From Yuukianura sp. NJ FZ-2021 (lineage: Eukaryota), in the NCBI GenBank assembly GCA_046563655.1, contig CM102287.1, forward strand, positions 1,116,001 through 1,180,000: a stretch of DNA of 64,000 nt. The letters run 5' to 3'. The notes beneath the pieces were generated by a model. The model saw only the letters and a program-made list of their open reading frames with translations. It had not been told where the DNA came from and searched no databases. Shown piece by piece: positions 1 to 23,100 of this stretch (position 1 is its first letter; each line of letters begins with the position of its first letter). The position numbers and the translations under genes are program-made.

Positions 1-1729
1 AAATGATCAATGCCGTGTTAGTTGATGGTGGGATAATGTGCATCAACTTAGGCACCATCATGTTCTTCAGCTGGCTGATTTCGGTCAAATTGAGTCGAGG
101 TGCGTCAAGGTCCCAGGATTCGTTGAAAACAGATTTCAAGTTAGGGAAAACAGTTTGGCTTCCGTAGTTCCGGTCGTGGGCTGGCTTGAGCATGATGTCG
201 ATTTTCGACATCATTGCTGGTATGACTATGGTGACTCGTGGTGCGTCTGCCATGCCCGTGGGGCATGGGTATGGTGGTCGAATTGTCCGTCGTCCTGGAA
301 CTTGTAGTTCGCAATCGCAAGAGAGTCTGACTTCGAGGCTTCCAATCTGGTCGTTTGGTGGCTGCACTGGGTGGGTCCTGTTGTCCGAGATCCCACGTTC
401 TCCGCACTGGATCTGCATTCCTTCCGGTGCTCCGGTTAGGATGAATGTATGATAGTCCAATTGGGTCACGCTAAAATCTCCTGGTGTGTTGAGGCATTCG
501 AAAAGGCAGACTTCGTTGAGTTCCCGAACGCTGGCGCCCCGTAGAAGTCGTTGAGCGCATAAGTATCCGGTCATCGGGTCGGAACTGAACTGAGGCACAT
601 GGCAGAGTCCAGTTTCGGGGTGGCATTGTTGAAGTTGTGTGCCTTGGATCGTCACGAGTTCTTCTTCGTTTACGGCTAAGTATGCTGGAGCGTGTTGAAC
701 AATGCAGGTGCTACCTTTGTAGCTAAACGGCACGTTTATCATCTCGTACAACTTCCAATTATCCGCGAGTTTCTTGATAGGTATGCGGACACGGTACATG
801 ATCCGTCCTCCGTCACTAAAGGCGCAGTCGGTGAGCTTCAGTTTGTAATACCGTGTGACTTCCTCGATGGGTATGACTAGTCCATATCCGTCAGCTCGTA
901 GTTTCTGGCTTGCTTTGCGGAGGTCTGCTGCTAACCTGGTCGGCGGGACTGCCAAAATGGAGATGGTTTGAGCTCGGCAGTGGTCCTGGAGATCCTTGAA
1001 GCGCATCAGCTCTCCGATTTGGTTGAGGTAGTCGAAGACTTGGAGAAAGGTTCGTCTAGTGGAATCTCCCTCGGCGGTAAGCAGGGTCATTGTCCTTTGC
1101 ACACTTGCGTTGCTGTCCTGCATGGCGGCCTGTTGTTGGTAGAGTCGGTTGACGTGCTCGTGCGCGGTTTGGAAGAGTCGGGTGACGTTTTTCCCAAAAA
1201 GTTCCATTGAGGTTTTCAAGTTCATCACGTTCTGGTTGTTTATGACAACTGAGCCCTTAATGGCTTCCATGAACTTCTCAATGCTCTCACCGTTGACCTG
1301 GAGGTCCTGCATGTCTCGTTTGGAGACGAATCCACAGCAGAAACTGAACATGTCGCTGACTAGGGTGAGAGGGTTAAACGATTGCCATGTGAGGTCCCGT
1401 TTCGTACGTCTTGGGCTGACTTCTGTCATCATCATGTCATCTTTAATGGATGCCAGCATCTTAGTGAGGTAGGTTGTGTAGGGTCGAATGTTCATTGGGA
1501 AGGTGCAGCCTTCGGTTTGAGCGTCGCGGCAGGTTCCTTCCATGACGTTTCCGATCGGGTTGGTAAAGTTGACTTGAATGTCATAGACGAGGGGAATTGT
1601 AGCGGTGTACAATTCCGTTCCTTTGACCTCCCGAACGAGAGATCCTGTGGTGACTCTAACTTCGGTGGGTTGTATGGAGAAAGCATGTCCTCCACCAAGG
1701 ATGGTTATCAGCATAACCAGCCACTGCAT
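1..1729 (-). CDS. env: Envelope / class I fusion glycoprotein (Env, F-protein-like), 3'-truncated by the window edge
   Basis: Absent from the ORF track because it has no stop in the window. Manual translation from ATG 1729 stays open for 576 codons to position 2. It shows a signal peptide (MQWLVMLITILGGGHA), a furin site RRTKR|DLTW (RTKR 1397-1408), a hydrophobic fusion-peptide-like segment (FNPLTLVSDMFSFCCGFV), a heptad-like helical region, a Cys-rich ectodomain and NxS/T sequons. Confidence 0.88.
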   Translation of the reverse strand, partial: MQWLVMLITILGGGHAFSIQPTEVRVTTGSLVREVKGTELYTATIPLVYDIQVNFTNPIGNVMEGTCRDAQTEGCTFPMNIRPYTTYLTKMLASIKDDMMMTEVSPRRTKRDLTWQSFNPLTLVSDMFSFCCGFVSKRDMQDLQVNGESIEKFMEAIKGSVVINNQNVMNLKTSMELFGKNVTRLFQTAHEHVNRLYQQQAAMQDSNASVQRTMTLLTAEGDSTRRTFLQVFDYLNQIGELMRFKDLQDHCRAQTISILAVPPTRLAADLRKASQKLRADGYGLVIPIEEVTRYYKLKLTDCAFSDGGRIMYRVRIPIKKLADNWKLYEMINVPFSYKGSTCIVQHAPAYLAVNEEELVTIQGTQLQQCHPETGLCHVPQFSSDPMTGYLCAQRLLRGASVRELNEVCLFECLNTPGDFSVTQLDYHTFILTGAPEGMQIQCGERGISDNRTHPVQPPNDQIGSLEVRLSCDCELQVPGRRTIRPPYPCPTGMADAPRVTIVIPAMMSKIDIMLKPAHDRNYGSQTVFPNLKSVFNESWDLDAPRLNLTEISQLKNMMVPKLMHIIPPSTNTALII

Positions 1730-1730
1730 T

Positions 1731-1760
1731 CTGAATATAGAAGATTATGGGTTAATGCTT
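1731..1760 (-). promoter_or_regulatory. Putative 3' splice acceptor for a subgenomic env mRNA
   Basis: The minus strand reads GCATTAAC (branch-like) CCATAATCTTCTATATTCAG|A ATG, between the pol stop (1763) and the env ATG (1729). Confidence 0.65.
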
Positions 1761-1762
1761 AA

Positions 1763-4700
1763 CTAACAATATCGTGCAGGTTTGCGGATTTCTCGCCCCG
1801 CGCGTGTGACATAGGGCGCTTGCGATCTTTTGGTCCTATCAATGTCGACCTTGTCGACCTTTATGTCGACCGCTTCCTCTTCCGAGGACTCACTGCTACT
1901 ATCACTACTACTGTCCACGCTAGTCGAGGTAGCGGAGCTACTGTCGTTCTTTTCGTCGTCAGAGGTCAGAGGCGGCGATGACGTAGGTAGTGTAAAGTTT
2001 TGAAGTACTGGAGGCGAAGCATTGCCTTCCCCAACTTGGTTTGCTGCTACTCCTGGAGCAGCTTCAGTGGTCGCAAATTCTAGCAGTGACTCGGAGTACG
2101 GCTTGAGATGATCAATGTGGGCCCGAACATGAGGCGCATCGGGATCGGCGCGTGGCACGCACCAGTACGAGAGTGGAGAGTGTTTCTTGGTTATGACGTA
2201 AGGTCCACGATATCGCATTGCAAGTTTGCGGGAAGTACCGGGTGCCGGTTTGTGAACCTTGATGAGTACAACGTCCCCTTCATTGTATTCAAAATCCTGT
2301 CGACCGACGTTAAAGAGTTTGCATTGTCGTTGTTGGCTCTGTTTGAGTCCTTGACGTGCCGCGTCTCGTGCTTCCTGCATTCGCCGAATGCGCGTCGGAA
2401 TGTCGGTGGATAGTCGGACTGTGTCATACACGATGTCAAGAGGGTGATATGGATGACGACCGTAAAGGATATAGTAACTGCTATAACCGGTAGAGTCCTT
2501 GTGCACTGCGGTGTTGAGTGCAAAGACGGCGGATCCAAGATATTTGTCCCAATTGCGCTGGTTCAACGAAACGTAGTTGGTGAGGATTTCTTCAATGCTA
2601 CGGTTGTTCCGTTCCACCAGTCCATTAGTCCTGCTGTGGTATGGAGATGAATAAACGTTAGTCGTCCCGATCAGGGAGTTGAACTGCTTGAAGAATGAGG
2701 CGGTGAATGTGGAGGCGTTATCCGTCAGGATCGTTTTGAAGACGCCGTGGATTTGGATGATTTCCATAAGGAAATCTAGCATCGCCTTAGTGGTATTGTG
2801 GCGTATGGCCTTCGCGTAAACGTATCGTGAGAGGAACTCGACGAGGACGACAATGTACTTATTCCTGGACTTTGTAGAGGGCAGGGGCCCGATGACATCA
2901 ACGCTGACTCGGTCGAAGAGGTCACCTACGGGGATGGGTGACAAGAGTCCAGCGGGGTGTGTGTTCCGGACTCGGCGCTTCTGACAGATGGCACAATTCC
3001 GTACGTATTCAGTTATAAGCGTGTCGAGCTTGAACGCAAATATGCTGTTCCGTGCCCTGGCAAGGGTTCTGGCAACGCCTAGATGACCCATGAGTGCGTC
3101 GTCGTGAAAACGGGGTAGAATGGAGTGCATCATATGCTTCGGAATTACTGGAAGGTTGGTCTTTGTTAGTTTGCATTTGTATTGTAGGAGGCCGTCGTCT
3201 ACAGTGAAGCGTTTGTGGAGCTTGCTCCTAGCGTTTGCGGTGAGAGTAGCCACGATTTTCTGAAGCTTCTCGTCGTTTTGTTGTTGTTGTATGAGCTCGG
3301 TACGCGAATCCATCGGAGTAACAAATTGCATTGCGTACCAGTGTACTGGGAATTCATCAGTAAATGTAGCAGCATGATCCTCCACAGGGAAACGGGAGAG
3401 GCAGTCTGCTTGGACGTGGCTTTTCCCATTGACGTGCTTTACGGTATAGTCAACATCTTGAAGTCGTAGGGCCCATCGCGCTAAGCGCGAGTTGCGTAGA
3501 TTCCGGCATGTTTTGAGGTAGCAGAGGGCGTGATGATCGACAACAATCGTGAAGGCTTTGAAGCCAATATACTCTCGAAATTTCTCAATTCCCCACAGGA
3601 CTGCTAGGCATTCTTGTTCGCTGGTGTTATAGCGCTCTTCCGCGCCACGGTAGGTGCGGCTGGCGTAAGCCACCACGCGTAAAGTGTCTCCCTCTCGTTG
3701 TTGGAGAATGGCAGCAATGCCTTTGTTTGACGCGTCTGTGTGTAGCTCGAGTTCGGCGTTCTCATTAAAGAATGCGAGGATTGGTGCGGAAACCAAGCAT
3801 TGGCGAAGAGAATCGAAAGCTCCCTGTTCCTGGTCGCCCCACTGAAAAGCTACGGTACTTTTGGTGAGCTCAGTCAGTGGTTTTGCAATTTGGCTGTAGT
3901 TCTTGATGAAACGGCGGTAGTATCCAGTACAGCCAAGAAATGTTCGTACTTCGTGAATGTTGGTTGGAGGTCGCATCTCAGTGATGGCCTTAACTTTGTC
4001 AGGGTTAACGGCAACTCCATCCCCCGTAATTATGTGACCAAGAAGGGCTAATTTCGTCTGCCCGAAATAACATTTTGGAGGTTGAAGGGTAAGGTTGTAA
4101 GCACGAAACTGTCGGAAGACATTTTCCAAGTTCGCCAAGTGTGACTGAAAATCCTTGGCGAAGACGCAGACGTCGTCAAGGTATGCGGTACAAATGGAGT
4201 GGATCCTTGTCCCAAGAACTGTCTTCATAAATGCGCTGAAAGCCGCTGGGGCGCAAGTGAGGCCAAATCCCATGTAGAGGTGTTCATAAGCACCTGCGTG
4301 AGTTACGAAGCTGGTCTTCTCGACGTCGTCCGGATGAATCGGGATTTGGAAGTAACCAGACATCAAATCCAGGCAGGAGAAGTACTTGGCGCCGTCAGGG
4401 AGGCCAACAGTTCTGAAATTACTGGCATAGGCCAGCTGATGGTTTTGGTAACAAAGTTGAGCTTCCGCCAGTCAATAACCATACGGTATTTGTCGCTGTT
4501 CGGCTTCTTAACTAAGGAAACTCCAGCGGCCCAAGGGGATCGGCTTTCGCGAATAATTCCCGCTTGTAGGAGCTTGTCGACTTCGTCTTCAATTATTTTC
4601 TTCTCCGCAGGGCTCTTCTTGTAGGGAGGGCAGCTTACAGGGAGAGCGTCACCAGTGTCGATGCGGAAAGTGACATCTTTTGCTTTCCCAAGCTGGTCCA

Positions 4701-5727
4701 AATTCCAAGCGAAGATGTCGCCGTACTCTAAGATAAGAGCGCGTAACTGCGCTTGCTCGTCGGGGCTTAAGTCCGGATTGATTTGGAGCTGAGCAATGTT
4801 TTCGCGTGTGGACTCCTGGCGTTGCCGACGGATCTCCTCTTCAGGTTCCGTTTCACGGACTAGAACGCGGTAGATATTTCCAACGTTTACTCCTCGAAAC
4901 AGCTTGACGGCAACTGGGCGCGGGTTGTCGATGGGGATCTCGAAGTCACCTTCGGCGACATGGGCGAGTCCTGGAGCGCAGAGTCCCAGCTTGTCGAGAG
5001 CTTGGCTGTTGGGTTCGAAGGCGAGTATCCCTCGAAGTTGATCGACCGGAAATACTTTGATCAGTGTCGTCGAGAAGGGCGGCAGCATGGTCTCCTCGAC
5101 GGTAAGTACCTTCGGCATCGATGGCGGGTGTACTTTAGTGGCGTGAACGTGCTCACGCTGCATAGTGTTCAGGCTTAGTCCAAGTGCTGCAGGGGTACGC
5201 AGATTAAATCCTCGTGGAACCGTCATTCCGAGGAATTGGAAGGTTCCGTGTTCCTGTGATTTTGAATACTTTAGTTGCAGTTCGTGTTCCAATGTGAAGT
5301 CGTTTCCGAGGATGACGTCATAGGAAATGTCCGCTAGGACGTAGAACTTGTGAGTTAGCATTGTAGTTGACTTCCGGGAGAAGGTAACTTGTCGGTAGAC
5401 GTAGCCAAGTACTGTGACCTTTGTCCCGTTTGGAAGGTCAAGAGCTGATGAGGCATCGATAGGCTGGAGCTCGTCCGGAGTGACATTGTTCTGCCGAATT
5501 ATACTGACGGGGCATCCCGTGTCGAGTAGACACGAACGTCTCTTAAGTACTGTGCCTTGTAGGATGAATATACTAATTATGAGGTTTCCAACTGGGTCCG
5601 TACTACTACGGTCTCCTGGGAAGGCTGTCTTGCGTGTCATCACGGCTAGAATTGGTCGTGTAGGATTAGAGGGTTTTGTGAGTGAGTGGGCTTCAGACCT
5701 CTCTACTGTCGCCTCGGTGCGTTTCCC
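1763..5727 (-). CDS. pol: Pol polyprotein (protease, dUTPase-like linker, RT, RNase H, integrase) with one internal frameshift near 4397
   Basis: Motifs: LLDTGC (protease), SPWAAGVSLVKK..YRMVIDWRKLN and YLDD (RT), HTDAS..E..DH (RNase H), HDDALMGH..CAIC (HHCC), VSVD..TDN..ERNNR (DDE), RYRGPY (GPY/F). ORFs 4363-5643 and 1763-4366 join as LASL-DGAKYFSCLDLMSGY if 1 nt is restored at ~4397. Confidence 0.95.
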
Positions 5728-7208
5728 TGGAGATTAGCGGGTCGCCCGGCCGATGGTGCTGGTGCGGTAGCACGAGTTGAATTGTCCTTGTCGCAAGGGG
5801 AAGCGGGTCTCCTGGCGTGATACTCATCGCCTACCACAGGACATTGGTATCCAAGGTGTGTCCCGTCACAATGTTCGCAGTGGGCCCGGTTTCGGTTCCA
5901 GTTTGTGTCTCGTTGTTTCCACCGCTTTGGGCAGTTGGCTATGCGGTGGTCATCGCGACCGCACTCGTAGCATCCTGCATACGACCTTTGGCCTTGCCAT
6001 GGTCGCCATGGGCGTCCATTGCCACGCTGTCCGGAGTTGTACCGGTTTCCTCCCTGGGATTGTTGTGGTTGGTCGCGATTATAGCCGTGGCCTGCTTTGC
6101 CCCATGCCGGGCGTCGTTTTACTATGCGTCGCTCTCCAGCTTGTGGTTCCGTTGGTGCTTCCAAATTCATATTGTTGAAGCGCGCAGTCAATCGGGGTAG
6201 ATCGGTTCCTGCCCGTTTCCGCTTCATCATGAAGTCGTAGTTCTCCTTTTCGATAAGAAACTGCGTCACATCTTGCGGCGTCTTCGGTTGCCGCAGGAAT
6301 ATCTCGTGACTGACATCTGCGGGCAACCCCTTGAGTAGGAAGTTGACCCGCTTTTCGTCCTTCATGGTGGTCCCTTGGCTTTTGTCCAACTGGTCACATA
6401 GTCGCAGCACCTTGCCGCAGTAGTCTTCCACGCTCTCTTTCGGATTTCTCTTCCGTTGAGCCAAGCGGTATTCCAGTTCTTCTTCAGTCAGCCGTGACTT
6501 GAAGCTCGTATGGAATCCCTCCTTCAGAGTCTTCCATGGAAGAGCGGCAACGTCGCCGTTGGCGTCTCGATTGGCTGGGTCACGCTCCCAGTCGGTGCGA
6601 AAATTCAAGAACCATGTCTTCGCATAGCCCTTGAGGTAAAGCGGAAGATGGCGTACTTTTGCAGCCTCGTCCCATCGTTGGTTAACAGCAATCGCCTTAA
6701 ACGTTTCCCAGAAATTCCTGGCTGGGTAGCCTCGTTTTCCCTCAAACGTTGAATCACCCGGTGGTGTCCAAACAGAAACCACGACGCTCGGTGCGGGAGT
6801 CGTCAGCATGACAGGCTGCTGAGGTCCCGGAGTAGGTGGGGTGCCTGCGCCTCCTGGCGTTCCAGATGCTGGTGGCTGTCCACCACCGGTTAGGTCCACG
6901 ACTGGGACTATCGAGTTCGGCCCACCAGCTCCTGCTGGCGGCGTCGGTGGAGTAATCGTTGTGGGCACCGGAAAAGTGAACGCATTCCCGGCCCCTCCGG
7001 CGGGTCCTGCTGTCCCGCCCGTTTGGCCCGTTGCAGGGCTAATGACAGGGTCGTTAGGGCTTGTCGTCGCGCCGGCTCCTGCCGTGGGCGTCTTCGGCCG
7101 TTGCCGATCCCGTTCTTTTGCTTCCTTCAGTACTGCGGCTAGGTCCGCAGGTTCGTACATTGGTGGAGTTCCGTCCTGTCGGGTGTGTCGACGAGCTGGG
7201 TCCGACAT
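5703..7208 (-). CDS. gag: Gag polyprotein
   Basis: Pro-rich N-terminus, retrotransposon-gag-like capsid region (LPLYLKGYAKTWF..KESVEDY..FLLKGL), and knuckles CYECGRDDHRIANC (CX2CX4HX4C) and CEHCDGTHLGYQC. Confidence 0.93.
   Translation of the reverse strand: MSDPARRHTRQDGTPPMYEPADLAAVLKEAKERDRQRPKTPTAGAGATTSPNDPVISPATGQTGGTAGPAGGAGNAFTFPVPTTITPPTPPAGAGGPNSIVPVVDLTGGGQPPASGTPGGAGTPPTPGPQQPVMLTTPAPSVVVSVWTPPGDSTFEGKRGYPARNFWETFKAIAVNQRWDEAAKVRHLPLYLKGYAKTWFLNFRTDWERDPANRDANGDVAALPWKTLKEGFHTSFKSRLTEEELEYRLAQRKRNPKESVEDYCGKVLRLCDQLDKSQGTTMKDEKRVNFLLKGLPADVSHEIFLRQPKTPQDVTQFLIEKENYDFMMKRKRAGTDLPRLTARFNNMNLEAPTEPQAGERRIVKRRPAWGKAGHGYNRDQPQQSQGGNRYNSGQRGNGRPWRPWQGQRSYAGCYECGRDDHRIANCPKRWKQRDTNWNRNRAHCEHCDGTHLGYQCPVVGDEYHARRPASPCDKDNSTRATAPAPSAGRPANLQGNAPRRQ
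5721..5727 (-). promoter_or_regulatory. -1 programmed ribosomal frameshift slippery heptamer G GGA AAC at the gag-pol junction
   Basis: X XXY YYZ pattern in the gag frame, 5 codons before the gag TAG. The -1 frame is open from here into the protease ORF. Confidence 0.8.
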
Positions 7209-8688
7209 GGCTTGCTTCTTCTTCTTCTTCTTCTTCTGAAAGGATCAGATGATTAGTTGTATTTGGTCCCCTAGGGCGCGGGGTGATGTAGGGTTGAGGG
7301 TTGGACAACTTCCTCCCTCGGCATTTGCAGAAAAATGAAATAGCTATTGCCCCCATGCCGGCTAGTAACCCAACTATAAACCCGCGCATGAAGGTGTCGG
7401 GGTTGAATATGTCGGACATAAGGTGGGCAGTTTGACAGTCTACCCCCAGTTGAAGATATACGTATAGGGACTTGTCCATGAGTAGCTTGTTTTCCCGGGT
7501 TATCAGCTGGACCCGGCCCTTCTCGTAAGTGTAAACGCCTCGTTCCGTGTCCCGAATACCAACAAGGCGTAGATCTTGTAGGTGAGGGTAGGGCATGTAG
7601 ATGTCTGGCTCGTCCCATAATGTTTGTATCATGCCCTTCTCTAAGTATAACGGCCTCCATCCCGTGGTTAGTTTGATCCAGAGGGTGTGTTCCGATGGGA
7701 AGTACCCCAAAACTGGGTATGTAATGCCGAAGATACTTCGGTGCTTGAGTCCTGGTGTGATTAGGTGGCCGTCGGATGAATATACTCCGATTCGGTCATC
7801 GACCATAACGTAGAGGTAACTCGCGACGCCGACTGTGAAGTTGATTCGGCCGTCCGGCGGGAAGTCCTCGAAAAAGTCTTCATTCTTCACTGGAGTAGGG
7901 AGGAGTGTTCCAGCTCCAGTAACTCTAACATGACTCTTCCCGTGGAACAGGAGATGGTCCCCATTAAGGTAACCGATATGATCGTACCACAGGGTACTCA
8001 GGCCTCGGATGTTTTCTCCATCCGGCCCTTCATCGAAGAACCCCGGTGGGTATAAGACCTTCAGAGCTTCTTCGTCGGGGACTCCTATTTCCGTAACGTG
8101 CGGCCAGAACTGGTACCATGCTGTCATCACAGATCCTATGGCACGAGTGTGTGGCAAGGCCAAGGCGTGGCCTATTTCATGTAGGAGTACCGAAAATAGA
8201 TTGACGTGTTCGTCGTCTTCTCCGAGAGACCAAGTCTCGTTGGCGTCTAGGTGGATTTGTCCACCCATTACTGATCCAGGGTAGTGTGCGTGGCCTAATG
8301 TGCCACCGCGTCCGTCACTAGCGTCATCATGAATTTCGTGTTCAAATGTGATGGGGATATCAGCATTCCCTTCCACATACGTAAAGGTGAAGTTGGAGTA
8401 ACGTTGCCACTTCACGAATGCCAGGCTGGCGTCAGCCAGGGCTTCTTCTCGGTCCATGTCATATGGGGTAGGTCCAAGGGTCCACGTGAGGTTCCTCTTG
8501 GTCCACCGGTGTGGGTTCACCGGACTTCGTCGGGTTCGGGTCGCCAGTGTCCATGGGCACATCATTGTCCCGGCGACATCTGCAACAAGCGTCGTCCCGA
8601 CGCAAAGTACAAGGAGCGTCCGTAGAGTCATACCGTCCAGATATCCTGTAACAGGGTTGAACCGCCAAGGTTCGGTAATTTGTTTCAT
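7054..8688 (-). CDS. Membrane-type matrix metalloproteinase (matrixin/M10A-like), intronless, carried by the retroelement
   Basis: Signal-like TLLVLCVGTTLVADVAG; furin site RTRR (8527-8538); RWTKRNLTW; ADIPITF; DGRGGTLGHAHYP; IHLDANETW; zinc motif HEIGHALALPH (8149-8181); Met-turn SVM; hemopexin-length linker; TM segment FIVGLLAGMGAIAISFF followed by CKCRGRK. Confidence 0.9.
   Translation of the reverse strand: MKQITEPWRFNPVTGYLDGMTLRTLLVLCVGTTLVADVAGTMMCPWTLATRTRRSPVNPHRWTKRNLTWTLGPTPYDMDREEALADASLAFVKWQRYSNFTFTYVEGNADIPITFEHEIHDDASDGRGGTLGHAHYPGSVMGGQIHLDANETWSLGEDDEHVNLFSVLLHEIGHALALPHTRAIGSVMTAWYQFWPHVTEIGVPDEEALKVLYPPGFFDEGPDGENIRGLSTLWYDHIGYLNGDHLLFHGKSHVRVTGAGTLLPTPVKNEDFFEDFPPDGRINFTVGVASYLYVMVDDRIGVYSSDGHLITPGLKHRSIFGITYPVLGYFPSEHTLWIKLTTGWRPLYLEKGMIQTLWDEPDIYMPYPHLQDLRLVGIRDTERGVYTYEKGRVQLITRENKLLMDKSLYVYLQLGVDCQTAHLMSDIFNPDTFMRGFIVGLLAGMGAIAISFFCKCRGRKLSNPQPYITPRPRGPNTTNHLILSEEEEEEEASHVGPSSSTHPTGRNSTNVRTCGPSRSTEGSKRTGSATAEDAHGRSRRDDKP
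7215..7256 (-). promoter_or_regulatory. Putative splice acceptor plus GAA-repeat exonic enhancer just upstream of the gag ATG
   Basis: The minus strand reads ACTAAT (branch) CATCTGATCCTTTCAG|AAGAAGAAGAAGAAGAAGAAGCAAGCC ATG(gag). The AG is at 7237-7236. Confidence 0.6.
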
Positions 8689-9424
8689 TGCTTCATTTGT
8701 AGTCTCGTTGTGTTTTCGCTCCTCGGGGTATGCGACAAGTGTTGAAGAAAAACCTCTGTCCTACGTCATCGCCTCTCTTGAGTGGTCGCGACTCCACCCT
8801 CAAAGCGACTTCGATTACTTGCTAAATGGGCAGCTGTAGGGTCTGGGACCACAATATGCTACAGCCCGGTCAATAGTTACACCGTTGCCGAGGTGACGGC
8901 CCACCGTCCCTCAACCCGTTCCTTCACGGAATATTTCTAGACGTTCGGTTTCATCTACGCCAAGCGCGGAGAGCAGTAAATCTTCTAAACAAGTCGTTAA
9001 TACAACAGCCAGCTACCCAACTGACTGTGGAAGAAAGTAGCGTCGGAAGAGAAGTGACGGAAGGGGTTCCCTACCCCCCTCTCAATTGTGAGAACAATAC
9101 CGCCAACCGTGTATGAGTCAAAGCTGATGGCTACCATAGTAACCTCTGACCCTTGGCTAGAGCCACAGCCCTATACGATGACCTTTGACCTGAGGCAGAG
9201 CGTGTGTGACAACAATAGAGGACTTTCACCTCAGCGAGGGTCACCTTCTCTATTGTGTCTGTTCGATGCCTGTGAGTACTTGGTCACCAGGGGGGGATAG
9301 CACTGGTCGTAGTCACTTACGTAGTAGGTAGCTTCGTAGAAATCAGCTTGACCTGTTCGTTGGTTGCCCCAGGGTGGTTGCCCTAGGAGTCCCTTAGTAC
9401 TTAAATCTAACTTATTTAATGTTT

Positions 9425-9545
9425 GTACGTTATTGTCTTCACATTACGTTATTGTCCTCAAATTATTTACTTCGTTATTGTTCTTAAATTATTTAGTACG
9501 TTATTGTTCTTAAATTATTTAGTACGTTATTGTTCTTACGTTAAT
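9425..9545. repeat. ~26-bp tandem repeat in the retroelement 5'UTR (about 5 degenerate copies)
   Basis: AGTACGTTATTGTTCTTAAATTATTT starts at 9495 and recurs (partial) at 9521, with degenerate copies upstream. Confidence 0.85.
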
Positions 9546-9705
9546 GTTCGCGCACACATTCATTCGTTACGTTAAATTACGTTAATAGCTGCGTTAACAG
9601 TTGCGGTATTGAATCAAGAATAGTTTTACTTGAATATACAGCGCAAGAAAGAAGAGAAAACAGCCACAGAGGTGGGTACCTCTGTATGGTTTTAAAGAAA
9701 TTGCC

Positions 9706-9723
9706 ATCTCGGCAAATGCACCA
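9706..9723 (-). promoter_or_regulatory. Primer binding site, most similar to the 3' end of tRNA-Gly(GCC)
   Basis: Minus-strand TGGTGCATTTGCCGAGAT begins 2 nt after the LTR terminal CA. It resembles the tRNA-Gly complement TGGTGCATYGGCCGGGAA with a few mismatches. Confidence 0.7.
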
Positions 9724-9725
9724 AT

Positions 9726-10372
9726 TGTTACGTCTCAGATTGGCGTAATGCCATTGGAAGGGCCCTCGGGGTTAGTACTCGCTTAGCCCAAGGGGTCAAG
9801 GGTCTTAAGGACCCCTTCCTGGCGTGAGTTCGTCCAATGTTTTGTCCATGTTTGTGTAAGGTGAAATAAAATGATCAAGTATGAATATATTTGCCCATAC
9901 CTCTCTGCTGTGACTGTGCTTTTATTTTCTTCCGGGTAGTAGTAGGTTAGTGGGTACTTAGTAGTGCTTTTTCTCCTTCCTTCTCTAGTCTTCTGTGCTT
10001 TCTCGCTTACTTCCAAGCTATTACTGAATAGTATTTATATTAGTGTTTTAATTGCCCAATTAAGGTTGCTAGGTGGGTGCTAATTAGTGCTACTTAGGAG
10101 CTAATTAACAACTTTTGTTTTATGCACTAGCGTACGGCTGTGGTCGTGCTTCCTGCCACTTGGCCCTGTGATCGCTTGGCCTTGTGGTTTCTTTCCACTC
10201 CGACTGAGACTGGATTTGGTGCTAAGTGGGCTTAGTTACTAGGTGTGCTTAGTAACTAACTAACTAACGTTACACGTGCGACCTTGTGCAGTAGTGCCTA
10301 GCAACTGACTTGTGAAAGTGAAAGTTCAAGTGCAGGTGCTGAAGGTATTGTTGTGCAAGTGCAGGTGTAACA
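9726..10372 (-). repeat. 5' LTR (647 bp)
   Basis: Bounded by the inverted termini TGTTAC...GTAACA and adjacent to the PBS. Minus-strand TATAAA at 10034-10039 and AATAAA at 9921-9926. The partner LTR is outside the window. Confidence 0.85.
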
Positions 10373-10373
10373 C

Positions 10374-10997
10374 AAGATTATTCAAAACCTCGACATGATG
10401 GTGTCACCTAGAATCGATGACGTAATTGTATTCTATAAGGTATATCAAAGCGGCTATGACGTCATGAAGTCAATGGACCATAGAGTTAGATGCATGGAGG
10501 GATTAAAATTGGACGAAGTCTACGCTAATAATACATTGCTAGTCATCGATGACCAAATGGCAGATTCATTAAAAGACAAATCTGTCCAAGAACTCTTCAC
10601 TTGCGGTGTTCATCATAGGTAAGGCAAAAATCACTTTGCAAATGCACTACCGCGATAAATTTGCATAGAATTGACAAAACGTTTTTGAATTCCAGGTCAA
10701 TATCCGTCATCTTCCTTTCTCAAAATTTGCTGCCGCAAGGAAAATATGCCAGGGATATTCGTCTCAACACACATTACATGACGATTTGCAAGACCCTCAT
10801 TTCCATCACAAGTGATGTACCTCAGTAGACAACTCAATCCAAGGAAGCCGAGTGCAATTTTAAACGCTTACGAGGAGGCAACTCGCCAGCCGTATTCATA
10901 CTTGTTCTTAAATTTACACCCTAGTTGCCACGATAATTTACGAATACAGTCAGGAATTCTTCCAAAGGAAGAACATATTATTTACTTACCAAGTTAA
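10374..10997 (+). pseudogene. Packaging ATPase (FtsK-HerA/A32-like), 3' part; interrupted by the LTR element, with one intron (10619-10695) and a frameshift at ~10795
   Basis: KIIQNLDMM..FYKVYQ follows where Walker A should be. Walker B is LLVIDD. The spliced sequence reads HHR-SISVIFLSQNL..GKYARDIRLNTHY, then SQVMYLSRQL..AYEEATRQPYSYLFLNLHP in a shifted frame. Confidence 0.88.
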
Positions 10998-11011
10998 GTG
11001 TTTCTTTTACA

Positions 11012-12972: not shown

Positions 12973-15900
12973 TTAGTTTTTATTAATCCTGTAATGCCCG
13001 TACGGTAAGGTTGTAATGCCGTCGTTTAAAATGTAGCGTTTGGAATCAAATGCATGTAGTGCAGCTTTAGTTGTTCTGATATTGTAAATTTTATGCTTGT
13101 ACGACCGCATTGATTTCAGAGTGCACGCTAGTATTTTTTGGTCTAATAAAACTTTCTCCAGCATTTCAAATGATATTGACTTTTGCTGAACTCTTTGCGG
13201 AATTCCCTTCATGGCAGTTTTTTTAAAGAAGCCGCATGGTAATCTTCACCTACAAAGCAGTAGGACTTGGGGGCGAGTCCCACAAACTTGGTCAGTATTC
13301 GTCCCTTCACGTCGTCTTTCATTTTTCCAGTGACTCCAGCATTCGCCATTGAATAAAGCGGGTGTGATTTTGGCAAGTTGCTGGTGTCAAATAGTTCTAA
13401 GTCTTCTTCGAGGTCTTTGTATAGGTCTGTGGTGCAAATTGAGTATGCCAAGCTGTCAGTATCAGTCATGAGCAGCGTCGCATTTTGGCCCCATTTGGTC
13501 TTGACGTAATCATAGTGGAAACGTGCCATATGTAATTTGCTTAACTCTAAAACGCAGAATCCTGTGTAAATTGCTTTGTTAAGGGTGACGCAGGACTTCT
13601 GCATTCTAAAGCAGGCCAGATTGTCACCCAAAATATCATGCGACAAAAATTGGGATTTTGACAACAATCTGGAAGCGGTTTGACGGTTGTTCACTACTCT
13701 GATGTTCATGCGCTTCCTGACAGATTCCATTCCTTTTCCAAATACAGCATTGACACATAACTTGTAGAACATCCTATCAAATTCATTTTTGGCATTGCGC
13801 CTTTGGGAGCTGTTGAACTCAACGTATGTTTTAAGCCATGGTTTTTGCCGGAATGCCAAAATTCTGTGAATCTTCTGAATCAAAAGTCCACGATTCACGT
13901 AGAATTGTAAGTTTGCCACATGACAGATGTAATTCTTTCGGTGCTGGAAATGGCACACAAGCTTTTCTTGCAATTCCATGTAATTGATTGGAAGACAGTC
14001 TAGCAACTTTCTTTGGAAGCTGCTAAAATTCTCTGAAGACACAGTTGTCTTTTCACAAGCTAGTGGATAGCATTGGTGTGAGTCGTGAAGTTTTTCTGTA
14101 TAGTTCAAAAGGTTAAGAAAATCATGAAAAATTAACAAAAGTTGACAGTAATAGTTCATGAAAGTACAATACCAGGATAATGAAGATCTGCTTCTATAAT
14201 GTACCCAATGTCGTCGTCCAAGTGAAAGTCATCAATATTGAATTCTGCCACCAATGCTAAAATTAAAGCAGATGAGTATATTAAAATGTAAAATTACTCA
14301 ACATTTCACTTGCTTAACGCTACCTTGATTTAAAAAAATAAAATTGTCAACTGGAAGCCTGCTCTCCATTGCCTTTCCGTACAGGTTAACCATGTCCCAC
14401 AAAGCAATATACATCTGGTTTGCATCTCCAGGCTCTCCACTATAGTCCTTCATGTATTTGTTGTGTGCCTCTGCATAACGATGTGAGATTTGGAAAATTC
14501 CTCCTGAACAATGGTTTAGGAGTTAGTCAGTGTTAAATTAAACATTATTAGAGGAAATAGTCAAATACCTCTCATTCCTTTCTCCAGAAAAATATACATG
14601 TCAATGTCAGTTATGAGTTCCAGCGTTACGTTTGACATTTTTAAAGCAGCATCCCACGCCAGCCCAGGTAGCGAAAAGTAGTGAGCCGGGTCAAGTCCAA
14701 AATTCTTCAATGCCATTTTTCGAAACTCTTCAAACACGCAAGCGAGTAACAACGCATCGGTTAGTAGGTAAAGATCATGGTATTCCCCTAAGGAATTAAG
14801 ACCGAACGTCTTGAAAATATGCAGAGCGTATTCATAGTCCGCATCGGTAATGTGGCAACTAGTAAGTGTGTTGTAGAACTTTGGCTTCGCAGGTAAATTT
14901 TCCTCATCAAAACGTTGCCAAGAATCGATGTAGTCGTAAGGGTATACACCTTTTCTTGTAAGCAGTTCATATTTATTTCCAAACACCTGCTTCATGATCG
15001 CAAATACATCTTCTCCTTGCTCCTTCAAATTGCTGACGAGTTCACTTAATGAGGAATTGAGAAATTGAAGGCTTTCTATAAACCGCAAGGAGTCAACTGC
15101 CACCGACATGTATTTCTCCGTGTTAGTTGGAATTACGGATATTTTCCTAGCACTTATGTCATTCAGTCCTTTGATGATCAAGTGATGATCATATCCTTGA
15201 AAGTTGTGGATCTGCGTGAATATAAAAAATTTAATGAAACAATTACAACGCATATTGCAAACGTATGTTGTTCTAACCACAACAGGTAAAATTTCCTTTT
15301 GTTGGAAATTCAAATTACATCTCTGGTGAGCGGCCCCTCGAAATGTACCTAATAGTAATTCGTTTAAGTTTTCAATAAGATAACAAGCTTTACCTTTGAA
15401 TTTATCAGCGTTTTTATTTTGTTACCCGTTAAATGACAATGATCTCTGCACTTGTCTCCCCAAAATTCAAATGCTCCACCACAAATGTGACAACTCTCAG
15501 CATTCTGAAATATCTCCTCCTCTCCATGTTTCATTTTAATGGGTACTTTCAGTTTGTATATCTCCATAACACTGCTCGCAATTTTTAAACAATCTTCAAG
15601 AAAAATCTTGATGCTGTCCTTTCCTCTGTAAACACGGTAGGAGATCAACTCGCCGGTATTTTTGATTAAGGCATATGAGAATCCGGAGGGGATATGACGT
15701 TTCTCTTTGGTGATGGACGACTCATTTGAAGAATCTTGAATGGGTTTCAATATTGATTCCAAATCAGCGTACATAACATAGCCTGCTTTCATTTTGTTTG
15801 AATAGTTTTCGAAACACATCACTGGTGGACTACCATTTTCGACTTTCGGCATCTTCACCTTTTGAAAAACAAACTTTTCACACTCAGCTTTATGCCTGAG

Positions 15901-17130
15901 AAGTAAGCACATCTTCTCGCATTTGCTTTCACGACAGAATTTTGAACACTGCTTAATTCTTTGTAAACAATTGTAACACAAGTAACGTCGTTTGCAGTTT
16001 TGTTTTCCCAACAATCTGTTCATGTTCCGAATTCCAATGAAATGCCAATTGTTTCCAGTTTTGTCACGCACAAGCATTAAATTTGCTGTTTGAGAAGTTC
16101 TGTAGTTTTTCTCAGAAATTCGTACGGGCAAAATTCCATCAAAGCGAGAATATTCAAAAACATTCACTGCAACGTCGTTTTTTTCTTCGAATTTGCATAT
16201 TTGTTTCAATGAAACCGGATATTCAATGCAGTCAAAGTCATGTAGATGAGCGTACTGCTGATAAGTTGAGGCACGCGAAGTCTCCTTATCAGGACGGTAC
16301 AAGGAACTGAGCACAGCCCACTTAAAGCAGCGATTTCCTCTCGTCATAATATTTACAGTCGCCTTTTTGGATTCCAAACATTTTGGAAGTCGCTTCCACT
16401 GACCTCCAGTGAATGGTTTGAATTTCCCAACTCTGATGTCTGATCCGCGGATTTTTGATAACTGCCACCCCGAACCATAAACTTCAAAGATGTTAATTGA
16501 CTGGTCAATTTTTGATACACACATTTTCATAAACCGCACAAGACTTTGCTTGGGGTTCAACACGTTAAGCATGTTCGAGTTTATCATTTTCTCTTGGTAT
16601 TCAAAAATTTCGTTTCCATCTTTCGATTGACATAAATAGCGTTTAAACTGTACCTTCACAGAAAGTTGGCACTTGATAGTTTTCAACTGGACCAGACATT
16701 CTTTGATAATGTTTTCGATTTGATTTCCAAATTTCAGAAAGTACAAATTGAGGCAGGGGACCGACTTTTTCATCAGATGACGGTATGTCCGGACGTACCC
16801 TTGAAATGCCTGAATTTTTTTGAAAGGAAGTATTCCAGTTTCACTGTTCTTAGAAATTGACCTCCCAATTTGGATCTTTCGACTTATAGCCTTTGCAATT
16901 TGAGAATGCAGAACTCTTGAATGCACAACTGCAGAATGGTTTTCTAGACGTAAATGTGAGTTAAATGTTTTCCGACAAAGAACGCACCGATAATTTGGAA
17001 TTTCACGTACACTTTTGTTTCTTGCACACTTCCTCCGGCACTTAGAAACGTGTTTAAGGTAAGCAAGCTTTCGAAGTTTCTGTTTGCCACAAACACCACA
17101 AACAGAAGAGCTTGGTTGGATGTGATCCAT
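12973..17130 (-). CDS. polB: Protein-primed family B DNA polymerase with N-terminal zinc fingers, OTU-like domain and endonuclease VII domain; 6 exons; frameshift at ~13225
   Basis: Exo I YADLES, EndoVII RDHCHLTG-TFRGAAHQRCNL, Exo II HNFQGYD, RKGVYPYDY, RGG, motif A WDMVNLYG, motif B KLCVNAVFGK, motif C TDTDS. Introns at 15349-15425, 15212-15277, 14504-14568, 14257-14323 and 14096-14172 are all GT-AG and restore the frame. Confidence 0.93.
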
Positions 17131-17819
17131 GTCTTAAAACAAGTTTTGGATTAATCAGCAGATGAATTTAGATAAGCTTACTCCATCTTTCAAATTACAT
17201 GTGTTTCAAGTTCTAGCGTCTTTCAGCAATTGTCCAAAAGGTGGCGCTGATAGTCACTTTGTAGCAATATTGCAGAGCAAAATTTTGAAGTGTATTTTAG
17301 AATGAACAAGTTTGAGATGTCAAATACAAGGCTTCAAAAAGTAAATGAATAAAGGAAAAAACGCTGCGTTTAAGCCTTCCCAGAATGAAATTTTTCCTTA
17401 AACTAGGGTACTTAAGTCCAACTGTATTCCCTTAAGTACCTTAATGAATTTGGCCAGTTTCTTTTTGACTTCTATGAACTCGTTTGATCCTGAGATTGAA
17501 AGCGAACATTAAGTATTATCGATGTGTCAGGTAAAACAGAGTCCAAAATCACTCAATTTTTGTTAAATTGCAGTTTTCAAAACTAAAAATTTGCTGAATC
17601 CTCAATTCTCACGAATTGAAGGACAATGAGAGATTCCGTGTCATATTGTTGCTAAGGCATAAACGTTAGATACTTTAATTTGTCGTGATGAACGCTTGCC
17701 GCTCCCTAAGTTTCAGTCATCGTTCCAACTCAGTTACAGAAACAACTGCTAAGCAGCGAACGAGTTGCATCAATCACCACCATCGTTCCATTTTGCAAAG
17801 TTATCTGTGTCAATTAACT

Positions 17820-19321
17820 ATGACCCAAAGGTTGAAAAGGGGTAAGCCCTCATTTTACAATTGTTTCATTGTTTCAATTGTTGCAATAGCTATTTTGTAC
17901 ATATTCAAATATGCTGTTCATTTTGAAAAACTTACATTTAATTTACTTTTTTGATTAATTTGTTTCTAGCCAATACCGTGGACCTAGAGGAAGAAGTTTC
18001 ATCCAGAACCGAAAAAATGGTAGCCGAAATGAGTCCAAATTCGAATGACCTAAGGAATGCAGAGTTAGCCACTTCAAGGGTTAACCCCTTAGCTCGTTCT
18101 CAGCAGTATCAGGAGTCCGTAAAGGAAGCTATGCGAAAGAAAGCATCAGTGGAGCGTGAGGTAAGATTTACAACTCTTATTTAAAAAGTTGCGCAAAATT
18201 CCATAATTAACTTTCGATTTATTATTTAAGGAATCTGATCCGGAATTTTTGCCGGACGATGATAAACTCAACAATGATGAAGATGACGATGAAGAAGAAG
18301 AAGAGGAAGAAGAAGATAGCTTTGAAGAGGATGATAGTGAAGAGAGCGAAAAGGGTATGGACGAGGAAGAGGTCAAACTCATCGCCATCGAAAAAAAGAT
18401 TGCGCCAAAGAAACCAGCATTTGTCAAGGTAAGAACAAAATAAAGACGAGGTTGTATAAAATAACTATCTTTGTTTTGTCCTTATTAGAATTTGACTCAA
18501 AAGCTTGCTGCCGCTGCGCCAAAGACACAGATGATCGTCAAGGTTGCACAACCAAACAAACGGCGCAACCAAATTGCTGCTAAATCATCTACAAAGGAGC
18601 GACTTAGAAAGGTATAAAGATCATTTTTCGAATTGAAGTTATATTAGCAACTATCGTATAATTTAAAATATGTTATATAAAACTACAGGTTACATATGGA
18701 ATTGAATCAGCAACTAAACCGGACGAAAATACAACAACCGTTTCCAAGGCAATCTATCTCCGACCACAAGGACGAACCGCCAAAAAAGCAGCAAAACGCC
18801 CAATTGGGATGCGTTCAAAACCGGCGGTAAGTCACATTTAAACGGAATGACGGTTCAAAGTAAATTGATTGATTCTTAACTTTTAGAAGGCTCCAACCCA
18901 TTCGGTAGCAGAAACCGAGGATTCAGAGGGTTCGATGACATGCGAGCCAGCCAAGAAGAAGAAGAAAAATTCCTCCAAAGTAAGAATAAAATTACCTACT
19001 ACTGAAAATTTTTTCAACTACTTAAGCACTGCAACTTAACAATTTTATTATAATTATTTGTCACAGGAGCTGGTACTGGATTTCGCTCCGTCGGATCATG
19101 GTGGTGGCGAAGACAAGGACGTCAGGGAAGGCGACGTCCATATCGGCCAGGGAATACATGTGAAGTGGCACAAGTTCAAAGGGAAGTACTATATTATGGT
19201 ACGTCATTTTGCCAACGGGACTGCCGACGGAAGACGTGGCATCAACATCGATATGCAGTATCTGCCCAATTTGAAAAAAGCTGTGGACATGGCTTACAAA
19301 TGTTACGTTGACAGCTCTTAA
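17820..19321 (+). CDS. Seven-exon gene: acidic/basic disordered N-terminus plus C-terminal PC4-like ssDNA-binding domain
   Basis: Introns at 17842-17969, 18161-18230, 18429-18488, 18612-18688, 18827-18886 and 18980-19066 give a continuous frame from ATG 17820. The last exon IGQGIHVKWHKFKGKYYIMVRHF..GRRGINI..LPNLK resembles PC4 (VSVRDFKGKVLIDIREY..PGRKGISL). NLS-like PAKKKKK; AATAAA at 19359-19364. Confidence 0.75.
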
Positions 19322-19884: not shown

Positions 19885-20104
19885 ACAAATTATTAATTGT
19901 TTCAAATAATTTTTCATTAAAATACATTGTGCTTCACCTTAACTTGATTTTGTACAATGTATTTTTGTCATCACATCAGAAACGGCTGAATGACATGAAG
20001 ATCTATTACATTCTCTGCCGAAAAGACATCGTGTCAATTCGACACACAATACCTGGGGTGACTTGAGACTCAAGCGGGGTAGAAGTGGCTTAGCTCACTC
20101 ATCA

Positions 20105-23100
20105 TGTGAATTTGCATAGCAATTTAACCCCCTTCAAAATTCTAGAAAAACTACCTTTCTAAATACCCAACTTTGAAAGTGTACTCACATCAATTTCAAG
20201 TCGGTGAATCCGAATTTGCAATTTGATCTCACCGGAAATCCATATTTCTCGAGATACAGCCATTTTGTGAATTTGCAGAGCAATTTAACCCCCTTCAAAA
20301 TTCTAGAAAAACTACCTTTCTAAATACCCAACTTTGAAAGTGTAATCACATCAATTTCAAGTCGGTGAATCCAAATTCGCAATTAGATTTCACCGGAAAT
20401 CCATATTTCTCGAGATACCGCCATTTTGTGAATTTGCAGAGCAACTTAACCACCTTCAAAATTCTATAAAAACTATCTTTCTAAATACCCAACTTTGAAA
20501 GTATACTCACATCAATTTCAAGTCGGTGAATCCGAATTTGCAATCAGATTTCACCGGAAATCCATATTTCTCGAGATACAGCCATTTTGTGAATTTGCAG
20601 AGCAATTTAACCCCCTTCAAAATTCTAGAAAAACTACCTTTCCAAATACCCAACTTTGAAAGTGTACTCACATCAATTTCAAGTCGGTGAATCCGAATTT
20701 GCAATCAGATTTCACCGGAAATCCATATTTCTCGAAATACAGCCATTTTGTGAATTTGCAGAGCAATTTAACCCCCTTCAAAATTCTAGAAAAACTACCT
20801 TTCCAAATACCCAACTTTGAAAGTGTACTCACATCAATTTCAAGTCGGTGAATCCGGAATTTGCAATTTGATCTCACCGGAAATCCATATTTCTCGAGAT
20901 ACAGCCATTTTGTGAATTTGCGGAGCAATTTAACCCCCTTCAAAATTCTAGAAAAACACCTTTCTAAATACCCAACTTTGAAAGTGTAATCACATCAATT
21001 TCAAATCGGTGAATCCAAATTCGCATTTGGATTTCACCGGAAATCCATATTTCTCGAGATACAGCCATTTTGTGAATTTGCAGAGGAATTTTACCCCATA
21101 CAAAATTCTAGAAAAACTACCTTTTTAAATGTCCACCTTTGAAAGTATACTCACATCAATTTCAAGTCGGTGAATCCGAATTTGCAATCAGATTTCACCG
21201 GAAATCCATATTTCTCGAGATACAGCCATTTTGTGAATTTGCAAAGCAATTTAACCCCCTTCAAAATTCTAGAAAAACTACCTTTCTAAATACCCACCTT
21301 CGAAAGTGTACTCACATCAATTTCAAGTCGGTGAATCCGAATTTGCGATTAGATTTCACCGGAAATCCATATTTCTCGAGATACAGCCATTTTGTGAATT
21401 TGCGGAGCAATTTAACCTCCTACAAAATTCTAGAAAAACTACCTTTCTAAATACCCAACTTTGAAAGTGTAATCACATCAATTTCAAGTCGGTGAATCCA
21501 AATTCGCAATTAGACTTCACCGGAAATCCATATTTCTCGAGATACAGCCATTTTGTGAATTTGCAGAGCAACTTAACCACCTTCAAAATTCTATAAAAAC
21601 TATCTTTCTAAATACCCAACTTTGAAAGTGTAATCACATCAATTTCAAGTCGGTGAATCCGAATTTGCAATTAGATCTCACCGGAAATCCATATTTCTCG
21701 AGATACAGCCATTTTGTGAATTTGCAGAGCAATTTAACCACCTTCAAAATTCTAGAAAAACTACCTTTCTAAATACCCAACTTTGAAAGTGTACTCACAT
21801 CAATTTCAAGTCGTTGAATCCGAATTTGCAATTAGATTTCACCGGAAATCCATATTTCTTGAGATACAGCCATTTTGTGAATTTGCAGAGCAATTTAACC
21901 CCCTTCAAAATTCTAGAAAAACTACCTTTCTAAATACCCAACTTTGAAAGTGTAATCACATCAATTTCAAGTCGGTGAATCCAAATTCGCAATTAGATTT
22001 CACCGGAAATACATATTTCTCGAGATACAGCCATTTTGTGAATTTGCAGAGCAATTTAACCCCCTTCAAAATTCTTGAAAAACTACCTTTCTAAATACCC
22101 ACCTTTGAAAGTGTACTCACATCAATTTCAAGTCGTTGAATCCGAATTTGCAATTAGATTTCACCGGCAATCCATATTTCTCGAGATACAGCCATTTTGT
22201 GAATTTGCAGAGCAATTTAACCACCTTCAAAATTCTAGAAAAACTACCTTTCTAAATACCCAACTTTGAAAGTGTACTCACATCAATTTCAAGTCGTTGA
22301 ATCCGAATTTGCAATTAGATTTCACCGGAAATCCATATTTCTTGAGATACAGCCATTTTGTGAATTTGCAGAGCAATTTAACCCCCTTCAAAATTCTAGA
22401 AAAACTACCTTTCTAAATACCCAACTTTGAAAGTGTAATCACATCAATTTCAAGTCGGTGAATCCAAATTCGCAATCAGATTTCACCGGAAATCCATATT
22501 TCTCGAGATACAGCCATTTTGTGAATTTGCGGAGCAATTTAACCCCTTCAAAATTCTAGAAAAACACCTTTCTAAATACCCAACTTTGAAAGTGTACTCA
22601 CATCAATTTCAAGTCGGTGAATCCGAATTTGCAATTAGATTTCACCGGCAATCCATATTTCTCGAGATACAGCCATTTTGTGAATTTGCAGAGCAATTTA
22701 ACCCCCTTCAAAATTCTTGAAAAACTACCTTTCTAAATACCCACCTTTGAAAGTGTACTCACATCAATTTCAAGTCGGTGAATCCGAATTTGCAATTAGA
22801 TTTCACCGGCAAGCCATATTTCTCGAGATACAGCCATTTTGTGAATTTGCAGAGCAATTTAACCCCTTTCAAAATTCTAGAAAAACTACCTTTCTAAATA
22901 CCCAACTTTGAAAGTGTAATCACATCAATTTCAAGTCGGTGAATCCAAATTCGCAATCAGATTTCACCGGAAATCCATATTTCTCGAGATACAGCCATTT
23001 TGTGAATTTTCGGAGCAATTTAACCCCCTACAAAATTCTAGAAAAACTACCTTTCTAAATACCCAACTTTGAAAGTGTAATCACATCAATTTCAAGTCGG

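Follow-up and report, generated by a model that had tools for sequence, protein, structure and literature searches.

The element and its genes

The window considered here is a stretch of 64,000 nucleotides (nt) from the genome of Yuukianura sp. NJ FZ-2021 (GenBank assembly GCA_046563655.1, contig CM102287.1, positions 1,116,001 to 1,180,000 of the forward strand). Its first part, positions 1-10372, is occupied on the minus strand by a single retroelement, the 3' end of which extends past the start of the window. Judging from its gene content, this element is best explained as a nearly intact, errantivirus-like provirus of the env-carrying Ty3/gypsy type residing in an animal genome. In the sense direction, and with its putative parts included, it consists of a long terminal repeat (LTR), a primer-binding site (PBS), a repeat-bearing leader, an open reading frame (ORF) for a matrix metalloproteinase (MMP), gag, pol reached via a -1 frameshift, and env of the Baculo_F type. 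We are concerned here with the MMP gene and with the way in which gag, located behind it, may be expressed. The coding features are as follows.

7054..8688, minus strand: MMP ORF, 544 amino acids (aa) from the ATG at 8688, 525 aa from the ATG at 8631
5703..7208, minus strand: gag, 501 aa, with Pfam matches to Retrotrans_gag (2.4e-9) and Ty3_capsid (3.3e-6)
5723..5729, minus strand: slippery heptamer G GGA AAC, within the 30-nt overlap of gag and pol
1763..5735, minus strand: pol, encoding protease (DTG), reverse transcriptase (RT), RNase H and integrase
2..1729, minus strand: env ORF of the baculovirus F type, 576 aa seen, cut by the window start

The gag translation contains a zinc knuckle motif, CX2CX4HX4C, and a search for its protein relatives gave one match, at 26% identity. 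The pol frame is -1 relative to gag and opens at about 5735; no stable hairpin that could stimulate frameshifting is predicted 3' of the GGGAAAC heptamer (z +0.91). In pol, the Pfam domains follow one another in the order RVT_1, RT_RNaseH, Integrase_H2C2 and rve; no Pfam protease model matched, the DTG motif being read in the translation. One frameshift inside RT, near 4363-4400, is the sole break seen among the ORFs of this copy. The env product matches Baculo_F with an E-value of 3.4e-7 and a score of 29.7 bits, against a cut-off of 24.1. The order of the pol domains, gag and the F-type env are those of an env-carrying Ty3/gypsy element. A pol query returned nothing from viral contigs and, from metagenome contigs, one locus at 36% identity (L001), which begins inside gag and shows no MMP, and is therefore uninformative on the MMP-gag layout.

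Upstream of the coding part, three further features can be delimited, the limits of the first two being putative.

9726..10372, minus strand: putative 5' LTR, 647 bp, starting with TGTTAC and ending with GTAACA (9731-9726)
9708..9723, minus strand: putative PBS, TGGTGCATTTGCCGAG, beginning 2 nt past the presumed end of the LTR
9445..9538, minus strand: tandem repeats of the leader, 26-nt unit, 3.6 copies, rich in TAACGT (Tandem Repeats Finder)

The stretch 10372-9726 was taken as the 5' LTR because of its TGTTAC and GTAACA termini, the loose ends of the contigs of other copies at 10373 and 9732, that is, at both of its presumed edges, and, in between, the sole TATA-like motif (10039-10033) and the sole AATAAA (9926-9921) that a motif scan detected on the sense strand (10,373 nt of the minus strand of the window). 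Only the 5' LTR can be recognized in this way, as a 3' LTR would fall outside the window. An LTR end at 9127, where contigs from three runs part from the window with loose ends, was considered and dropped for 9726 in view of the TGTTAC/GTAACA termini, the TGG located 2 nt further on and the loose ends at 9732; the loose-end sequence from 9127 is absent from the whole window. The window contains no tRNA gene with which the PBS could be compared.

The leader repeats sit within a variable stretch of about 350 nt (9355-9706), which, as indicated by the joints 9456>9556, 9478>9547 and 9355>9706, is skipped or replaced in other copies. Next to it, a contig of run X3, which carries a second organism label, covers only the leader piece 9127-9355, at a depth of 350, whereas the remainder of the element has a depth of about 8. 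This suggests that part of the leader, including the region of the splice donor discussed below, also occurs in an abundant family, related or non-autonomous. On the other side of the LTR, contigs reach a high depth over 10373-11000 and show loose ends at 10373; this stretch is itself repetitive, so that the element seems to be inserted within another repeat.

The metalloprotease gene between leader and gag

The product of the MMP ORF comprises, in this order, a signal peptide, a short Cys-bearing segment with the sequence RTRR, a matrixin catalytic domain, a putatively hemopexin-derived region, a transmembrane helix and a tail with the sequence SEEEEEEE. The catalytic domain covers positions 1-158 of the 159 positions of the Pfam Peptidase_M10 profile (5.7e-36); it contains the zinc site HEIGHALALPH, with Ala where Gly is usual (HExxHxxGxxH), followed by the SVMT Met-turn, and its structural-metal motifs align with those of cellular MMPs. 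There is no match to the Pfam Hemopexin model, but the alignment to the MMP-1 entry of the PDB continues into hemopexin blade 1, and for the C-terminal half a language-model atlas points to hemopexin clusters with a value of 0.86, which is below the 0.9 level and hence a lead only. The translation then continues into a hydrophobic helix and a cytoplasmic tail. A single-sequence AlphaFold model had a mean predicted local distance difference test score (pLDDT) of 33.8 and was not used.

The protein resembles the cellular membrane-type MMPs in having a full matrixin domain with the zinc-binding His residues and the Met-turn, a transmembrane helix with a cytoplasmic tail, and RTRR as a furin-type site; the region in between may be hemopexin-derived, as in those MMPs. 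Unlike them, it is encoded by a retroelement and has no PG_binding-type prodomain: no match to the Pfam PG_binding_1 model and no PRCGxPD cysteine switch were found in the translation, and the signal peptide is separated from the catalytic domain by some 15 residues, among them a single Cys (in MMCPW) and the RTRR. The signal peptide, MTLRTLLVLCVGTTLVADVAG, begins with the Met encoded by the ATG at 8631, which is not the first ATG of the ORF but lies 19 codons inside it. Another small upstream ATG, located at 8696 and overlapping the start of MMP, is specific to this copy, as every covering contig, from four runs, differs at 8695.

That the MMP ORF belongs to the element follows from three observations. 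Contigs from four DNA runs were aligned to positions 1-11000 of the window, and one of these runs alone yielded 399 contigs on this stretch (80 at no less than 99%, 113 at 95-99%, 132 at 90-95% and 74 below 90%). Contigs from diverged copies, found under two organism labels, bridge both the junction of MMP with gag (6544-8500) and that of the leader with MMP (8358-9732 and 8540-9776). Second, the differences between copies are mostly synonymous: among the 40 best-supported of 1,193 such differences, 10 of the 11 located inside the MMP ORF are synonymous, a pattern best explained by purifying selection on MMP within the element. The env gene is likewise under selection, with 14 of 14 differences in the same set being synonymous. 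Third, the MMP region matches the element in G+C content (0.48-0.55) and differs in this respect from the flank (0.35-0.41).

Among 1.84 billion representative proteins, 4,036 matches were obtained at E<=0.001, none of them close: the best 150 of the 4,036 show at most 45% identity and cover essentially the catalytic domain, with a few reaching approximately residue 317. A word-based protein search gave five matches, the top two of which, with 31-32% identity, are octocoral proteins that bear the names MMP-24 and MMP-14-like. The top scorers in the HMMER search were proteins with several MMP domains, with no element-borne forms among them; an MMP query returned nothing from viral contigs or metagenome contigs. 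The phage collection contained no match. Nor did we find, in the literature searched, a description of a matrixin or MMP borne by a retroelement. MMP genes are carried by granuloviruses. Taken together, the capture by the element of an intronless, membrane-type MMP-like gene, placed between leader and gag, appears to be the best explanation; it is a firmer fact than the splicing considered below and, arguably, a more interesting one.

Candidate splice motifs and the expression of gag

When considering the expression of gag behind such a gene, the number of intervening start codons is important. Between the MMP and gag starts, 32 ATGs are found over 1.48 kb, which makes it implausible that ribosomes scanning from the cap proceed past the MMP start as far as gag. 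Simple stop-start coupling does not fit either, since the MMP ORF extends, in a different frame, over the first 51 codons of gag and its stop is found 154 nt 3' of the gag ATG. An MMP-gag fusion protein is ruled out, since the gag frame is closed 12 codons 5' of its ATG by the TGA at 7247. Starting from the presumed transcription start, an unspliced RNA would, in addition, contain 11 ATGs before the MMP ATG, namely, seven in 10005-9321 and four in 9320-8689.

An earlier note on this DNA suggested that the MMP ORF would lie in an optional intron, so that splicing could switch between MMP and Gag/Pol. The motifs that bear on this suggestion, all of them predicted from the sequence, are the following.

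9315..9320, minus strand: TAC|GTAAGT, a candidate 5' splice donor located in the leader some 390 nt past the PBS
8646..8665, minus strand: TTCAACCCTGTTACAG|G, acceptor-like site of MMP, followed after 14 nt by the ATG at 8631
7236..7256, minus strand: candidate gag acceptor, a CTAAT branch-like motif (7256-7252) followed by TCATCTGATCCTTTCAG ending at 7236
7215..7235, minus strand: (GAA)7 run adjoining the candidate gag acceptor, read as E7 in the MMP tail and as K7 in the closed gag frame
1731..1760, minus strand: CATTAACCCATAATCTTCTATATTCAG|A, acceptor-like site of env, followed after 1 nt by the env ATG

The donor, the CTAAT motif, the tract with its AG at 7236, the GAA run and the gag ATG are all located on the minus strand where the earlier note had placed them. 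The intron that it put at about 2.08 kb measures 2,085 nt (9320-7236), and the GAA run, as it had claimed, doubles as poly-Glu in the tail of MMP, reading SEEEEEEEA in that frame. Contrary to the earlier note, the MMP ORF would not lie entirely in this intron: the acceptor is inside the ORF, 182 nt of which extend beyond it. The joints 9321>7235 and 9321>1730, which would reveal copies made from spliced RNA, are not among the 15 DNA joints listed of 22, a result that, with the GAA run masked as a repeat (7208-7244), is no evidence either way.

The tract of the gag acceptor, which reads TGATCCTTTCAG / TCCTTTCAG, ends at 7236, and no AG intervenes between CTAAT and the AG at this position; the gag ATG at 7208, preceded by GCAAGCC, follows 27 nt past the acceptor AG. 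The (GAA)7 run (period 3, 7.7 copies at 7215-7237 according to Tandem Repeats Finder) is unique within the element and stands after the weakest of the three pyrimidine tracts. GAA repeats are known as an exonic splicing enhancer motif. Outside the element, two more GAA-rich runs occur on the plus strand, at 18288-18317 and 18952-18969. When the AG dinucleotides of the sense strand (631 in total) were ranked with a rough weight matrix, the env, MMP and gag sites came fourth, fifth and seventh, respectively; among the top eight sites, those of env and gag are the only ones with a YTRAY motif 8-45 nt upstream. Another acceptor-like site, at 5727, coincides with the slippery heptamer and was taken as incidental.

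The placement of the acceptors can be judged independently of any matrix by a simple rule with no fitted weights, which demands YAG, at least 8 pyrimidines among the 11 positions from -15 to -5, and no upstream AG. Just 18 sites in 10.4 kb comply with this rule. Of the 154 ATGs of the sense strand, nine are preceded by such a site within 30 nt with no other ATG intervening, and these nine include the starts of env (1729), gag (7208) and MMP (8631); each of the three has an acceptor-like site 1-27 nt upstream with no ATG in between, 8631 being the first ATG after the site at 8646. Upon random placement of the 18 sites, all three starts were hit in 0.014% of 100,000 trials (p ~1.4e-4) and at least two of them in 0.7%; for gag and env alone, a conservative estimate is p = 0.003-0.007. 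The acceptor-like sites are thus placed non-randomly, that of gag, like that of env, far better than chance would have it. Together with the donor in the leader, these branch, tract and AG arrangements before the ORFs make up, at the level of sequence, the layout that splicing of the retroviral type would employ.

Such splicing can be envisaged as follows. A single primary transcript would begin in the LTR, and its donor at 9320 would be joined alternatively to three acceptors, each located directly before an ORF: joining to 8646 would give the MMP message; joining to 7236 would give the message for gag and, via the -1 frameshift at GGGAAAC, for gag-pol; and joining to 1731 would give the env message. 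The unspliced RNA would serve mainly as the genome. This scheme, in which the leader donor would be used alternatively with an acceptor for each of MMP, gag and env, is the best supported of those considered, and we give it an even chance of being correct. It retains part of the switch between MMP and gag/pol proposed in the earlier note, which is supported by the layout, the placement of the acceptors and the scanning barrier, but departs from it in the source of MMP. Translation of MMP from the unspliced RNA, as the earlier note had it, is probably wrong: the 11 upstream ATGs and the presence of the acceptor-like site at 8646, ahead of the signal-peptide ATG, make this route unattractive and favor a separate MMP message. 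Hence, MMP probably has an acceptor of its own.

Several points weigh against the three-acceptor scheme. The donor, which had been called consensus, is so on the intron side (GTAAGT), but the exon base at -1 is C, and it ranks 13th among 451 GT dinucleotides; although only two GTRAGT hexamers, at 9320 and 1893, are present on the sense strand, base composition predicts 3.49 of them for the element as a whole and 0.34 for the leader (9707-8689), so that the donor by itself is unremarkable. The weights of both the donor and the acceptor matrices are approximate, and the ranks are rough. The ATG at 8631 was chosen over that at 8688 after the acceptor-like site had been seen, and without it the significance drops to the value for gag and env alone. 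The two top-scoring acceptor-like sites, at 9025 and 7890, precede no ORF start. The common first exon would hold 4 to 7 upstream ATGs, which is a burden on any cap-dependent model. Furthermore, its function in the protein could by itself maintain the E7 stretch, which, located behind a Ser in a cytoplasmic tail, would have the form of an acidic-cluster sorting motif; the readings of the GAA run as a splicing element and as a protein sequence are, in any case, compatible. Finally, there are precedents for doing without splicing. In the MDG1 group, gag is expressed behind two upstream ORFs, with no evidence of splicing of the transcripts (bioRxiv 10.1101/2025.03.14.642691, partial text), and two internal ribosome entry sites (IRESs) have been reported in gypsy (PMC4276936, partial text).

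It is from these precedents that the most serious alternative draws its strength, namely, that only env is spliced, while the unspliced RNA, with MMP included, serves as the message for gag and gag-pol by a cap-independent or discontinuous mechanism (an IRES in the 3' region of MMP, shunting or reinitiation), the motif at 7236 being incidental coding sequence. Env splicing alone would fully account for the donor, and the leader is long and, with 11 ATGs before MMP, so rich in start codons that the element may rely on non-scanning initiation anyway. However, the ORFs to be bypassed in the MDG1 group are of about 70-110 aa, as against 1.48 kb with 32 ATGs here, and the position of the MMP stop, past the gag ATG, is unsuited to simple stop-start coupling. 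Besides, this explanation does not account for the gag ATG being, like the env ATG, the first one after one of only 18 acceptor-like sites. We consider it unlikely, if still worth serious attention.

Distinctly less probable is the possibility that the motifs are due to chance and that copies with MMP produce little Gag of their own, relatives devoid of MMP providing them with Gag and Pol in trans. The abundant relative that has only the leader piece 9127-9355 in common with the element would be in line with such a supply, as would the broken RT of this copy; but gag, env and, bar one frameshift, pol are open in this very copy, the env differences listed are all synonymous, and the positional statistics of the acceptors speak against chance. 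A promoter inside the 3' part of the MMP ORF, driving a gag mRNA in the way that an internal promoter drives other genes in foamy viruses, would solve the scanning problem, many promoters having no TATA box; nothing direct favors it, though, the sole TATA-like motif of the sense strand is in the LTR, and the branch, tract and AG arrangement with the adjoining GAA run would be left unexplained, which makes it a poor candidate.

Surroundings, related systems and implications

Beyond the element, the window contains, at 19963-38700, a satellite of 161-bp units in approximately 116 copies; its G+C content is 0.35, and its GC skew, of about -0.26, is strong and constant. Three long open frames on the minus strand of 13212-17133, one of them with a weak match to DNA_pol_B_2 (E 0.0011, below the cut-off), may represent a decayed element of the Polinton/Maverick type.

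The closest parallels to the architecture of the element are found among the insect errantiviruses (Metaviridae). As in Drosophila gypsy, an LTR is followed by gag, pol and env, with pol frameshifted and env of the F type, and the 26-nt repeats of the leader resemble the protein-binding repeat array in the 5' untranslated region of gypsy (PMC4276936). In gypsy, env is made from a spliced subgenomic RNA with a donor in the leader (PMC4276936); the env ATG of the present element similarly stands directly after an acceptor-like site, and its splicing is predicted by analogy. Unlike gypsy, which, according to the part of that account available, has no ORF between leader and gag and expresses gag from unspliced RNA, the element described here has a 1.6-kb MMP gene before gag, and two acceptors are proposed for it in addition to that of env. 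Ty3/gypsy elements with F-type env and the order gag-pol-env have been described, in multiple similar copies, from many phyla other than insects (PMC13524379, eLife 2026, partial text), and the gene order and F-type env seen here agree with that description. A term search of the main text of that study gave no hit for a metalloprotease, a matrixin, splicing or anything upstream of gag; its supplements, which are outside this scope, might list extra ORFs.

The element has in common with the MDG1 group (412, mdg1 and Stalker) that accessory coding sequence, oriented like the other genes, is inserted between the leader and gag; in that group, two accessory ORFs, sORF1 and sORF2, precede gag, and long reads show no splicing; one of their products is a membrane protein thought to aid cell-to-cell spread (bioRxiv 10.1101/2025.03.14.642691). 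The ORF of the present element differs in its size of 525-544 aa and in encoding an enzyme, and also in that splicing is proposed for it.

Splicing as such is not foreign to retroelements. In the Ty1/copia elements copia and EVD, gag-only subgenomic RNAs are reportedly made by splicing. The Cer1 CERV of C. elegans uses host splice sites for a separate message of one product (PMC10309623, partial text). As far as these accounts go, the splicing in Cer1 and in Ty1/copia removes downstream gag or pol sequence, whereas here it would remove an upstream accessory gene and thereby expose gag; splicing of the latter kind was not found in the literature searched.

Tentatively, and with somewhat less than even confidence, the three-acceptor scheme can be extended to a programme like that of complex retroviruses, run by an invertebrate endogenous retrovirus of the Ty3/gypsy type, in which one donor would serve three acceptors, Gag-Pol would come from a subgenomic spliced RNA only, the full-length RNA would be reserved as the genome, and MMP would have been kept for the crossing of the extracellular matrix by particles or infected cells on their way toward the germline. 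If splicing is real, the two roles of full-length retroelement RNA, as genome and as gag mRNA, which are normally borne by one molecule and are thought to compete, would be separated in this element, and the arrangement would illustrate a way for a retroelement to accommodate a large gene ahead of gag. The capture of MMP matters regardless of splicing: the gene is under selection, is of the membrane type and resides within an env-carrying element. An MMP is an obvious candidate for breaching basement membranes during spread from the soma to the germline.

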